Shown piece after piece: positions 43,637 to 46,604 of a stretch of DNA of 50,343 bases. The stretch covers positions 1-50,343 of the forward strand of contig JBAYHY010000004.1 in the NCBI GenBank assembly GCA_041665885.1, read 5' to 3'. A program made the position numbers and the translations under genes. Position 1 is the stretch's first letter. Each line of letters begins with the position of its first letter. The stretch is from Minisyncoccota bacterium. Lineage in GTDB: Bacteria; Patescibacteriota; Minisyncoccia; Phycocordibacterales; UBA9973. The notes under the pieces are model-generated. The model made no database searches, was not told where the DNA came from, and saw only the letters and a list, made by a program, of their open reading frames with translations.

Positions 43637-44218
43637 TTACTTGTTTTTCCTCTTCAATATTTCAGAGAAAAACGGCGCCAAAGACAAGAGTATGATGAGA
43701 ACAGTTATAGGTAAAACATATTGATCAATATTTTTTATCGAATTCCCGAGAAAGTACCCGGCAAAAATTATTACCAGGGTCCACAAGAAACCACCAAGTA
43801 TATTATAAAAAATAAAATTTTTATATTTCATATTTCCCACTCCCGCCAAAATCGGAGCGAAGGTCCGCACAATGGGCACAAAACGAGCAAGCACGATGGT
43901 CTTTTTGCCATACTTATCGTAAAAATTAGTCGTCTTGTCAATATTCTTCTTGCTGAAAAAAAATGACTCCGGTTTGGAAAAAATTCTAGGGCCGAGTTTT
44001 TTCCCCGTCCAGTACCCTACGCTATCCCCCAAGACCGCGCAAATAAAAGAACCTAAAAATAAATAATATATATTAAAATGGTGCGCGGCGGCCAAAAGGC
44101 CAGCGCTAAATAAAAGAGAATCTCCGGGAAAAAAGAAGCCAAAAAAAAGTCCGGACTCGGCAAAAACAACAGCAAATATTCCCAAAAGTCCCAGGCCCTC
44201 AATAAAAGATAAAATCAT
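43637..44218 (-). CDS. dedA: DedA family membrane protein
   Basis: FAESGLFFGFFFPGDSLL, LARFVPIVRTFAP..AG. Confidence 0.93.
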   Translation of the reverse strand: MILSFIEGLGLLGIFAVVFAESGLFFGFFFPGDSLLFSAGLLAAAHHFNIYYLFLGSFICAVLGDSVGYWTGKKLGPRIFSKPESFFFSKKNIDKTTNFYDKYGKKTIVLARFVPIVRTFAPILAGVGNMKYKNFIFYNILGGFLWTLVIIFAGYFLGNSIKNIDQYVLPITVLIILLSLAPFFSEILKRKNK

Positions 44219-44767
44219 TTATAAAATTCGTGAATATTTTTTTAAAAAATAATCAAAAGTAAAACTAACAATAAAACCGAGAATATATCCACCCAAAATA
44301 TCAAAAGGAAAATGCACCCCGGCGGTGATGCGCGCGAGCCCTATCAACAAAGCAAAAAACATGAAAGCATACCCGGCCTTTTTGTGCAAAAAGAAAATCG
44401 AGAAAGCGAGGGCTGAATAGAAGGTCGCATGCCCAGAGGGGAAAGCAAAACCAGATTCAGCAAAAAGAGAAGTGACATTATTAAAAGTTAAAAAGGGACG
44501 TGGGCTTCCAATTAAATTTTTTAAAACAAAAGCTATGGCCCAAGCACCAACCCCGGGCAACAAAACCGTGAGTATTTCTCTTTTTTTCTCCCAAAGGACC
44601 CGCGCCGGACTCTCTGCTCTTAGAACTTCATGATGAAAAAGCAGGAATAACCCCGCAAGAATAACCACAATGTATGGAAAATAGACAGCAAAGAAAATTA
44701 TTAAATAATCAATCAATTTCGATTGATGAGCTAAATTATAAAAAAAGAAAAAGATTTGATTGTTCAT
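44219..44767 (-). CDS. PAP2-family phosphatase (undecaprenyl-PP phosphatase-like)
   Basis: K....PRP, FPSGHA, ARITAGVHFPFD. Confidence 0.9.
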   Translation of the reverse strand: MNNQIFFFFYNLAHQSKLIDYLIIFFAVYFPYIVVILAGLFLLFHHEVLRAESPARVLWEKKREILTVLLPGVGAWAIAFVLKNLIGSPRPFLTFNNVTSLFAESGFAFPSGHATFYSALAFSIFFLHKKAGYAFMFFALLIGLARITAGVHFPFDILGGYILGFIVSFTFDYFLKKYSRIL

Positions 44768-44810
44768 ATAATATTTTTAATCATAATACATATTAACAAA
44801 AATGCATAAT

Positions 44811-44836
44811 CCCCCATTTACGCCATGGCTTAAATG
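44811..44836. repeat. Palindromic direct repeat, copy 1
   Basis: cccccatttacgccatggcttaaatg, identical at 45215-45240. Confidence 0.9.
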
Positions 44837-45195
44837 TGGGTATTATAGGGTTTAGCCAGTTTAAAAGTTTTAAAGTCGTCCTTTATTCTTATCCTCTCTA
44901 AATAATCCAAGAAATCTTTTGGCAAAGGTGATGGGCCAACCCAGACACTTTTTTGAATCATAACATAGCCAAACTTAACTAGCTGGCGACGAAACCAGTC
45001 TCGTTCCTTCTTTAAGTTATGTGGAATATCATACATCACAATAAGATTTTTAGGTGCGTCTTTTTTGAAGGGTGAAATAAAAACAGAATTATAAAAAGCC
45101 TTTTTTCTTCCTTCTATTTTTGCGCGACTTTTTCTATCTCTTGAAAAAAGAGGAATGCCGAAGGAATTAACTCTCATGCCTTTATACGTAGCCAT
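44830..45195 (-). CDS. Stand-alone Cas2-like (PaaX central-domain-like) protein
   Basis: IVMYDIP, FRRQL..FGY..IQKSVWV; no other cas genes in the window. Confidence 0.75.
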   Translation of the reverse strand: MATYKGMRVNSFGIPLFSRDRKSRAKIEGRKKAFYNSVFISPFKKDAPKNLIVMYDIPHNLKKERDWFRRQLVKFGYVMIQKSVWVGPSPLPKDFLDYLERIRIKDDFKTFKLAKPYNTHI

Positions 45196-45214
45196 ATCTT
45201 AAGTATACATCATG

Positions 45215-45240
45215 CCCCCATTTACGCCATGGCTTAAATG
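45215..45240. repeat. Palindromic direct repeat, copy 2
   Basis: Identical 26-mer 404 bp from copy 1; CCCCATTTA-C-GCCATGGC-T-TAAATGGGG palindrome (45216-45243). Confidence 0.9.
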
Positions 45241-45258
45241 GGGATTATTATGAATTCA

Positions 45259-45777
45259 TTAAAATTTAGAGAAAATTTCACCAACAACATCTTCCATGGA
45301 TCTTTCGGCATCAACGGGAATAGCTCCCTCTTCCTGTAATTCCTTTTCAAAATTTTTATACCAACTTAAAACATTCTCTTGATCTAAAATATGTTTACCA
45401 AAATTATGGTTATCTCTTTCTATTAACCTTTTAATAAAAATATCTTCTGGGCAACGCAAAAGAAAAACCTTGTCAAACAAACCCCATAATTCCGAACGAT
45501 TATTAAACAACCCCGCGACAGCTATGGTTTTTTCTGGATTATTTTTTATTAAATTATTTAATTTTTCTTTATCACAAACATACTGATGTTTTTTGTACCA
45601 ACCCTCACTCATTCCTGGATTCCATGCTGATTTTTCTTTTGTTCTTTTGTCTATCCAGTAAGTCAAACCATTAACTGAATCGGCATCTATTGAAAAAATC
45701 CCTTTTTTAACTAACTTTTTTACAACACTTGATTTTCCTGTTCCGGGCATTCCTGTTATAAAAAATACTTTTTTCAT
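45259..45777 (-). CDS. P-loop nucleotide kinase-like protein (AAA_18-like)
   Basis: ITGMPGTGKSS, IDAD, R...RD lid-like segment. Confidence 0.8.
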   Translation of the reverse strand: MKKVFFITGMPGTGKSSVVKKLVKKGIFSIDADSVNGLTYWIDKRTKEKSAWNPGMSEGWYKKHQYVCDKEKLNNLIKNNPEKTIAVAGLFNNRSELWGLFDKVFLLRCPEDIFIKRLIERDNHNFGKHILDQENVLSWYKNFEKELQEEGAIPVDAERSMEDVVGEIFSKF

Positions 45778-46604
45778 TTTTTACTTTTCGCTACTGTTAA
45801 TACATTATTAAGAAGCATAGCGACGGTGACCGGGCCCACTCCGCCGGGCACGGGTGATAAATATCCAGCAACTTCTTTCACCGATTCCGAATCAACATCT
45901 CCGATTATCCCTCCCTCTGATTCAGAAGTCCCGGCGTCGATCAATATCGCGCCTTTTTTAATCATATCACCGGTAAGGTATTTGCCCTTCCCCATTCCTG
46001 AAATCACGACATCTGCTTGTTTGATAATCTCTTCTTTGTTTAACGTTTCGTTGGTAATTATTTCCGGTGATAAATTCCTCGCGCGAAGCAAGGCGGCAAC
46101 CGGCCGACCCACCAACATTCCTTGCCCCAGGATAACTATATTTTTTTCTTTCAAATCCACGCCGATAGAATCAAGCAGAGCCATACAAGAAAATGCCGCC
46201 GGAAAACTTATATCGTTTTCTCCTTCGTAAAATTTTCGACTGGCAATAGCCCCCAAACAATCAACATCAAGACGTGAATCAATGCTATCTAATACTTTTT
46301 GTTTATCTAAATGCTCCGGAAGAGGAAGCTGAACAATAATTCCGCACATATTGGGAACTTTATTTAAGTCTTTTATTTCTTCAATCAATTTTTCTGTATT
46401 TATCTCTCGCGGAAAGCTCGTAGGATAAAATGAAATACCGACAGCCTCAGCCATTCGTTCTTTTATTTTTACATACTGCACAGAAGCTGGATCATCCCCC
46501 ACCAGGACATCGCAAAAAATCGGCACGAATGAAAGTTTCCCCACTTCGTCTTTTACTTTAGCCAAAATTTCATCTCGAATTTTTCTCCCATCAATAATTA
46601 TCAT
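45774..46604 (-). CDS. folD: Methylenetetrahydrofolate dehydrogenase/cyclohydrolase
   Basis: GIIVQLPLP, LVGRP, LIDAG, SPVPGGVGPVTVAMLL. Confidence 0.95.
   Translation of the reverse strand: MIIIDGRKIRDEILAKVKDEVGKLSFVPIFCDVLVGDDPASVQYVKIKERMAEAVGISFYPTSFPREINTEKLIEEIKDLNKVPNMCGIIVQLPLPEHLDKQKVLDSIDSRLDVDCLGAIASRKFYEGENDISFPAAFSCMALLDSIGVDLKEKNIVILGQGMLVGRPVAALLRARNLSPEIITNETLNKEEIIKQADVVISGMGKGKYLTGDMIKKGAILIDAGTSESEGGIIGDVDSESVKEVAGYLSPVPGGVGPVTVAMLLNNVLTVAKSKK

Follow-up and report, generated by a model that had tools for sequence, protein, structure and literature searches.

The question raised by this locus is what ties a lone gene for a Cas2-like protein to the two nearly identical palindromes that bracket it. 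The gene encodes 121 amino acids and lies in a 50,343-nt stretch of the genome of an ultra-small Minisyncoccota bacterium (GenBank assembly GCA_041665885.1, contig JBAYHY010000004.1, positions 1 to 50,343). The whole of this stretch is here called the window; it is contig C4 of a 643-kb, 16-contig draft genome with 40% G+C. An earlier note had offered three options, namely a mobile cassette excisable between the repeats, a two-repeat CRISPR proto-array with the gene as its spacer, or operators for a related PaaX/Cas2-like regulator. The operator option came closest: a site does lie at the gene's own predicted promoter, but conserved flanks and residue covariation show the sites to go with the protein encoded between them. 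We propose that the Cas2-fold protein binds its own palindromes as duplex DNA and regulates its own gene, a reading to which we assign a probability of roughly 0.55; the narrower claim, that the protein recognizes its own palindromes in some form, is highly probable. The observations that carry these claims are a conserved anatomy, copies scattered through the genome, sites written into open reading frames (ORFs) at constant length, and covariation between protein residues and palindrome bases.

A bracketed gene and its orthologs

A repeat search of the window identified the direct repeat CCCCCATTTACGCCATGGCTTAAATG[T/G]GG at 44811-44839 and 45215-45243, 404 bp from start to start. The repeat is 29 nt long with one mismatch between the copies, and the first 26 nt are identical, as the earlier note had claimed; each copy is also the near-perfect palindrome described there, with 14-nt arms that are 93% complementary. 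The pattern was absent from all 100 dinucleotide shuffles of the window. The parts of the module are listed below in window coordinates.

44811..44839, no strand: palindrome, downstream copy (core 44816-44835), containing the stop codon of the gene
44830..45195, minus strand: gene for the PaaX_M/Cas2-fold protein, 121 aa, the ORF between the palindrome copies
45202..45209, minus strand: extended -10 box TG-TATACT, predicted from the sequence; the same TATAAT-type box at the same distance in orthologs
45215..45243, no strand: palindrome, upstream copy (core 45220-45239), a candidate operator centered at about -35 of the gene's own promoter

On the gene strand the upstream copy reads ATTTAAGCCATGGCGTAAAT with CCCC/GGGG(G) flanks, and the minus strand continues after it as GGGGGCATGA-TG-TATACT-TAAGAT-ATG. 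The predicted extended -10 box sits 6 nt 5' of the ATG, which places the dyad center at about -35; the position of the box implies that the mRNA of the Cas2-like gene would be leaderless. The 20-nt core of the downstream copy takes in the stop codon (44830-44832), so that the placement first proposed, with one copy over the stop codon and the other over the -35 region, holds in both parts.

Orthologous loci were fetched, 26 from genomes and 66 from metagenomes, and the gene could be delimited in 63. This analysis revealed the same 20-nt dyad on both sides of the gene in about 60 of the 63 loci, which answers in the affirmative the earlier question of whether other Cas2-like genes of the candidate phyla radiation (CPR) have flanking palindromes of their own. 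The dyad consensus was AT(A/T/C)T(A/C)(C/A)GC(C/T)AT(G/A)GCGTA(A/T/G)AT, and the start-to-start spacing had a median of 416 bp (range 388-476). Among 37 loci that could be scored, 26 had 12-13 nt between the end of the upstream core and a TATAAT-type box that followed it; 6-8 nt separated this -10 box from the ATG. The downstream core mostly ended 2 nt beyond the stop codon and encoded Ile-Ser-Ala-Met/Ile-Ala-stop. The palindrome-bracketed layout is a property of the protein family and not a local oddity.

A derived A (ATTTAAGCC) is common to both window copies and absent from the nearest relatives, which have ACGCC in the upstream copy and CAGCC or CAGTC in the downstream copy; this explains the identical copies that had first drawn attention. 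Gene conversion between the window copies, or parallel adjustment of both, would give such a shared change. In the downstream copy a Ser codon has changed from TCA to TAA, and the window protein is 4 residues shorter than most orthologs.

Pfam analysis of the protein gave a match to PaaX_M (PF20803; E = 6.3e-15, 55.5 bits, cut-off 24) and a second to CRISPR_Cas2 (PF09827; 2.6e-6, 27.9 bits, cut-off 23.8), and the NCBIfam model cas2 (TIGR01573) scored 29.7 bits against a cut-off of 24.5. The same Pfam search matched no winged helix-turn-helix (wHTH) family and no PaaX_C (PF08223) in the 121 aa, and the PaaX equivalog TIGR02277 scored 20.1 bits, below its cut-off of 264.55. AlphaFold modelled a core at residues 49-117 with a predicted local distance difference test score (pLDDT) of about 85 and a ferredoxin-type beta-alpha-beta-beta-alpha-beta order. 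The preceding basic N-terminal arm (residues 1-48) was modelled as largely unstructured and is probably disordered. The best fold and sequence matches in the PDB were Cas2 and VapD, both weak, with Foldseek E-values of only about 0.02. The motif Tyr55-Asp56-Ile57-Pro58 is invariant, and Asp56, constant in 47 sequences, occupies the position of the Cas2 catalytic Asp. A large protein collection contained 1840 relatives, mostly of 115-135 aa and 65-92% identity. They belong to CPR bacteria of the Paceibacteria type (Nomurabacteria, Zambryskibacteria and others), and many bear the annotation 'Cas2' or 'PaaX'.

Neither annotation fits. PaaX repressors, such as those of E. coli and Pseudomonas, combine PF07848 (the wHTH), PF20803 and PF08223; the only strong family match of the window protein is to their middle domain, and a palindrome over its own promoter suggests repression, as for PaaX. 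However, the protein has 121 aa against about 300 and no link to phenylacetate genes, and it is not a PaaX, with no wHTH, no PaaX_C and 20 bits against 265. PaaX reads DNA by its wHTH, whereas in the window family covariation implicates the Cas2-like core and the basic arm. With Cas2 (PF09827, TIGR01573) the protein shares the fold and an Asp at the end of strand 1. It nevertheless carries a 48-residue basic N-terminal extension and is tied to a palindrome around its own gene, and with neither Cas1 nor an array it is not a Cas2 in the CRISPR sense.

The closest longer relatives, of 160 aa (L097-L099; genomes G015, G018 and G019), have the N-terminal YKGxxVNxFGIP in common with the short form. 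In L097-L099 a Cas2-like core 60-70% identical to that of the short form is combined with an inserted wHTH-like segment that the short form lacks, and these loci have no flanking palindrome with arms of at least 9 nt. From these comparisons the short form looks like a wHTH-less derivative that gained palindromes.

Covariation between protein residues and palindrome bases

For the covariation analysis, 51 distinct proteins were aligned and paired with their upstream sites. Residue 59, which directly follows the invariant Tyr55-Asp56-Ile57-Pro58, was Asp or Glu in 11 of 12 loci with a CTATAG-type center (CTATAG or CTATGG) and in 0 of 39 with CCATGG (Fisher P = 2.5e-10, uncorrected for phylogeny). 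At CCATGG loci the residue was His, rarely Tyr, Phe or Asn, and it was Ala or Ser in two further genomes. It switched at six or more separate places in the weakly resolved tree, for example at L038 within the window's own clade and at L017 beside L046. The Asp pair lies near the two-fold axis in Cas2 dimers; with residue 59 three positions past Asp56, a reading of the bases beside the dyad center would be geometrically sensible.

A second association was found for residue 34, in the basic arm (RK-[K/R]xFY), and outer dyad position 3/18. All 33 ATAT sites went with Arg, and 16 of the 18 ATTT/ATCT sites with Lys; L033 (Arg, ATAT) parted in this way from its near-identical sisters L031 and L036 (Lys, ATTT). 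No clean partner was found among the protein columns for dyad positions 5-6 (AC versus CA). Genome-wide, the site type follows the resident protein: all five sites were CTATAG in G017 (Glu) and all three were CCATGG in G019, and the present genome, whose paralogs carry His, Glu and Glu, has both CCATGG and CTATAG sites.

Copies elsewhere in the genome and inside reading frames

A tblastn search found two short Cas2-like genes beyond that of the window. The three paralogs are 57-60% identical, and each is bracketed by its own palindrome variant.

P1, contig C4 (window): flanking word ATTT..CCATGG..AAAT
P2, C3:29570-29947, between rpsG and fusA (str operon): flanking word ATTT..CTATAG..AAAT
P3, C9:25490-25828, after an arginyl-tRNA-synthetase-like gene: flanking word ATCT..CTATAG..AGAT, two perfect copies 406 bp apart

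The genome-wide search that the earlier note had called for returned about 16 pattern matches, comprising the copies at the three bracketed paralogs and about 10 solo copies, compared with 0 for a reversed control pattern. Five of the approximately 16 copies lie within ORFs. The copies away from the paralogs include the following.

Solo copy directly 5' of a SpoU-type methylase gene, after uvrC
Solo copy directly 5' of rsmA, after uvrD
Solo copies inside ORFs: rnhA, rsmI, miaA, comFC and a diversity-generating-retroelement (DGR)-type reverse-transcriptase gene
Zn-ribbon paralog genes with a site: C10:1540-3204; C11:7581-9251 (minus strand); C15:2366-4102; C13:10625-12382

The four Zn-ribbon paralogs are Cys-rich proteins of 554-585 aa for which no Pfam, NCBIfam or PDB relative was found. 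The site lies 5 nt past the stop codon of three of these genes and on the start codon of the fourth, where the ATG is the central one of CCATGG. No other non-self partner of the site is as constant, and in relatives these genes stand in tandem with a palindrome between them.

Across 40 related genomes the site count ranged from 0 to 16. Same-genus genomes with the short protein had a median of 5 sites (mean 8) and those without it a median of 1 (Mann-Whitney P = 1.7e-4). Solo sites recurred at the same places in other species, inside rsmI, miaA, comFC, folA and the reverse-transcriptase gene, between tandem Zn-ribbon paralogs and after efp; single occurrences were seen inside truB, tsaD and uvrC. 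The earlier note would have given up the association with Cas2-like genes had the repeat been scattered and the homologs been without flanking copies; the repeat is scattered, but the homologs keep their flanks. As a listing and not an enrichment statistic, the non-self host genes are rich in rRNA and tRNA modification enzymes (rsmA, rsmI, the SpoU methylase, miaA, truB, tsaD). Further hosts are DNA-maintenance genes (rnhA, comFC, folA, uvrC), and other sites lie beside uvrD, recA and recR.

We also compared site-bearing and site-less orthologs of the host proteins. In an alignment of MiaA from 26 genomes the distance from the P-loop to GGTGFY was 100 residues in 23. All five fully matched site-bearing orthologs were among these, and extra length elsewhere lay outside the site. 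At the site position, site-less orthologs read AEEKIKEI and site-bearing ones AIYAIAEI, ISAMAEI and similar. In RsmI a variable loop read EHLSHSVDV in one form and ERFENEVEV in the other, with 16-residue loops in both. Orthologs with and without the site having the same length, the sites were written in place and not inserted, and insertion of a mobile palindromic element into miaA and rsmI was rejected on this ground. Since the word replaces ordinary coding sequence at constant length, it has been selected over the protein sequence. The ORF sites also track whichever variant the rest of their genome uses. To our knowledge, few DNA words other than uptake sequences and parS-type sites override protein sequence in essential genes. 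The DNA uptake sequences of Neisseria and Haemophilus are similarly written into coding regions, in frames that tolerate them and without indels, often form terminator-like inverted repeats and lie near genome-maintenance genes (here uvrC, uvrD, recA, recR, rnhA and comFC). They differ in density, about 1 per kb against about 1 per 40 kb here, and the present word co-varies with a cytoplasmic Cas2-fold protein.

A proposed mechanism and its alternatives

We suggest that the Cas2-fold protein binds the 20-bp dyad as a dimer. The Cas2 core would lie over the dyad center, with residue 59 beside the invariant Asp56, and the basic N-terminal arms, including residue 34, would reach the outer dyad positions. 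Binding to the upstream copy, over the -35 region of the predicted leaderless extended -10 promoter, would shut off the gene's own transcription. About 400 bp away, the copy over the stop codon would provide a second site, which may serve to form a loop or to insulate the gene from its neighbors. The roughly 10 other copies would be further targets, at which bound protein would block initiation or elongation. In its working the protein would come closest to a repressor that regulates itself through a cognate operator, and it is homologous to the PaaX middle domain. The features that match such a repressor are a fixed site at the predicted own promoter (26/37 loci) and residues that co-vary with bases, the latter with weak phylogenetic correction. 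The lac operators O1 and O2 are about 400 bp apart, and CcpA, PurR and CodY act as roadblocks inside genes. A promoter site with a second site about 400 bp downstream and further sites in coding regions resembles lac-type and roadblock repressors; the difference is that the second site is here locked to the regulator's own stop codon.

Several observations weigh against this proposal. The tree used for counting switches is poorly supported (115 columns, only 6 well-supported branches); a strict independent-pairs test is powerless on it, and switches between near relatives were judged by eye. PaaX binds DNA by its wHTH, which is absent here, the Cas2-like part being its middle domain, and the Pfam search found no recognized DNA-binding domain in the short protein. 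Four genomes (G003, G007, G013, G022) have 1-5 good sites although no short protein was found in them. At flank positions 11-16 of the upstream copies, pairing reached 0.5-0.66 compared with 0.25 in controls while the flank sequence itself varied (CCCC/GGGG, CAC/GTG and others), and in 18 of 62 sites in relatives a further 5-14 nt of the flanks, arbitrary in sequence, were perfectly complementary, even within ORFs. Finally, asymmetric intergenic sites were oriented to gene direction 18:3 (13:1 without self-flanking copies), with the variant CA half 5', a bias not expected of a symmetric dimer on duplex DNA.

The last of these points lead to the main rival, in which the protein would recognize the palindrome as a hairpin or cruciform, in RNA or single-stranded DNA. 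The copies would then be protein-dependent terminators, or signals for processing or stability within mRNAs and at gene ends, and the gene's own copies would insulate it and feed back on its transcript. The extra flank pairing is unexplained by a plain duplex operator and points to a folded form or to a palindrome-making process. The symmetric double changes, from CCATGG to CTATAG and from GC to AT at positions 7/14, would also suit a folded form. So would four intergenic copies (L110, L113, L118, L124) that lie between convergent genes with an A-run before and a T-run after them and look like two-way terminators. The Cas2 fold, moreover, resembles the RNA recognition motif (RRM), and some Cas2 and VapD proteins are RNases according to their PDB titles.

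The window copies themselves fold at -12 to -15 kcal/mol, but with z-scores of only about -2, and no Rfam family was matched at E <= 1 in window 44000-46000, nor any in C13:10400-12500. Although conserved more than any others, the downstream copies make poor hairpins with three mismatched pairs (5/16 and 6/15 form in at most 10%), which favors their being read as duplex DNA. The upstream copy, 12-13 nt before the predicted -10 box, would not be part of the transcript of its own gene, and its phasing suits a promoter element. A strand-specific G-U signature of an RNA hairpin was looked for and not found, the intermediates CTATGG and CCATAG both occurring. On balance we favor duplex binding at the promoter as the likelier form, and we regard recognition of a folded form as unlikely.

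Long perfect palindromes were seen at several sites: 34-38 nt within miaA and comFC, and 36 nt in intergenic DNA. Among relatives, perfect palindromes of 34-48 nt surround the 20-nt core at L101 (miaA of G003), L116 (comFC of G006), L108 (G027) and L110 (G029), two of them in ORFs. The added arms, of arbitrary sequence, give the impression that the reverse complement of one flank had replaced the opposite one.

A quite improbable alternative, though one with several points in its favor, is a process like that of repetitive extragenic palindromes (REPs) and their REP-associated tyrosine transposases (RAYTs). Nicking or cutting of the dyad by a Cas2-fold enzyme would be followed by repair, fold-back synthesis or gene conversion that spreads, extends and homogenizes the palindromes, and the scattered copies would be products of this activity and not regulatory targets. 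As in a REPtron, the gene lies between two palindromes with further copies dispersed mostly at gene ends, and copy number, 0 to 16 within the genus, tracks the presence of the gene. Residue 59, three positions past the invariant Asp56, co-varies with the central bases; the derived A in both window copies looks as if it came from gene conversion; and same-length overwriting with arbitrary palindrome extension fits templated repair better than stepwise mutation. However, RAYTs are relatives of HUH/Tyr transposases (IS200/IS605-type), whereas the window protein matches only PaaX_M, Cas2 and VapD. Copies number 3-16 and not hundreds, many lie in ORFs without insertion or target duplication, and the upstream copy is promoter-phased. 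Solo copies that recur at the same gene positions across species indicate vertical retention and not ongoing spread, and nuclease activity is weak or absent in many Cas2 family members.

The distribution of the module bears both on this alternative and on the excisable cassette of the earlier note. In most same-genus genomes folD is directly followed by the PAP2 gene with no palindrome. Besides the present genome and G011, about a dozen of the fetched loci have the module at this junction. Its contexts among 65 loci were as follows.

folD upstream: 24 loci, 13 of them also with PAP2 downstream
Between rpsG and fusA: about 10 loci
Before lepA: 4 loci

A cassette could leave the folD-PAP2 junction empty, as it is in most genomes of this genus, but the contexts of the module are conserved over long distances, the paralogs are old (57-60% identity), and no recombinase, target duplication or solo 'scar' was seen for the module. 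Its history looks like one of old, rare relocation and loss and not like that of an active cassette.

Two further readings are very improbable. In one, the protein would bind the copies as sites of chromosome architecture, like those of parS, matS or Noc/SlmA, in segregation, nucleoid organization or replication control, with the flanking copies serving autoregulation only. Few copies, many of them in ORFs and without indels, are typical of parS-type sites, and the 5-16 copies per genome found here, many in ORFs and placed without indels, follow that pattern with a word conserved across a class-level group. Against this, many same-genus genomes lack both the protein and the sites, which would be odd for core segregation; three paralogs use different words in one genome; and the sites recur with gene families such as the Zn-ribbon genes.

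In the other, the binder would be a different protein, perhaps a general hairpin binder or the wHTH-PaaX_M protein of contig C11, and the short gene would be the most constant member of its regulon. The four genomes with good sites and no short protein would be accounted for, as would the missing DNA-binding domain; a site also lies 400 bp from the wHTH PaaX-like gene in this genome and beside that gene in G003. Yet the two residues that co-vary with two site positions belong to the short protein, and it is the resident short protein that the type of site follows across a genome. The wHTH long forms were considered as binders and rejected, their closest representatives (L097-L099) being without flanking palindromes whose arms reach 9 nt. 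The weakest reading, a CRISPR remnant or proto-array, has repeat size and symmetry and Cas2 homology as its only support and was dismissed: the whole 643-kb genome has no Cas1 (PF01867, 0 matches; controls positive in 7/14 genomes), a k-mer spacing scan of the genome found no CRISPR-like array apart from one unrelated candidate on C1, the palindrome copies being isolated, the 'spacer' would be a gene 65-92% identical across hundreds of relatives, and the repeats sit at fixed promoter and stop-codon positions. The absence of cas1, array and wHTH had been correctly noted at the outset.

No published description of a palindrome-bracketed Cas2-like module was found in the literature, and none joining PaaX with Cas2 or Cas2-like proteins; the papers found that treat Cas2, CPR bacteria and palindromes together concern CRISPR proper. 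Thousands of CPR genes annotated 'CRISPR-associated endonuclease Cas2' are not CRISPR genes but part of a self-contained module of protein and palindrome. If duplex binding by the Cas2-fold protein is correct, the Cas2 fold would also have a new mode of reading DNA, with a two-position code of His versus Asp/Glu at residue 59 and Lys versus Arg at residue 34. CPR bacteria have very few regulators, and with sites at genes for rRNA and tRNA modification, for DNA maintenance and for the large Zn-ribbon family this module may rank among their main control circuits. Its tie to short palindromic repeats also makes this lone Cas2 relative relevant to hypotheses about how CRISPR adaptation arose. A more far-reaching possibility, which we consider rather unlikely, is that the Cas2-fold dimer alone reads the palindrome base-specifically, with the Asp56 pair and residue 59 on the dyad center and the basic arm at the outer bases, possibly nicks or cuts it, and writes, extends and homogenizes the copies, including those in essential genes. 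Such Cas1-free handling of repeats would bear on how CRISPR repeats met Cas2.

Two neighboring genes lie outside the module.

44219..44767, minus strand: PAP2-family phosphatase gene, downstream neighbor
45259..45777, minus strand: P-loop kinase-like gene (AAA_18), upstream neighbor

The AAA_18 gene separates folD from the module in this genome only; this is not so in the closest relative, L005. Small kinase genes like it also adjoin sites in G019 (L138) and G029 (L110), which may be coincidence. In a consensus scan of window 44768-44796 (minus strand), a -10-like TATTAT abutted the annotated ATG of the PAP2 gene, and the true start or promoter of that gene may differ from the ORF call.

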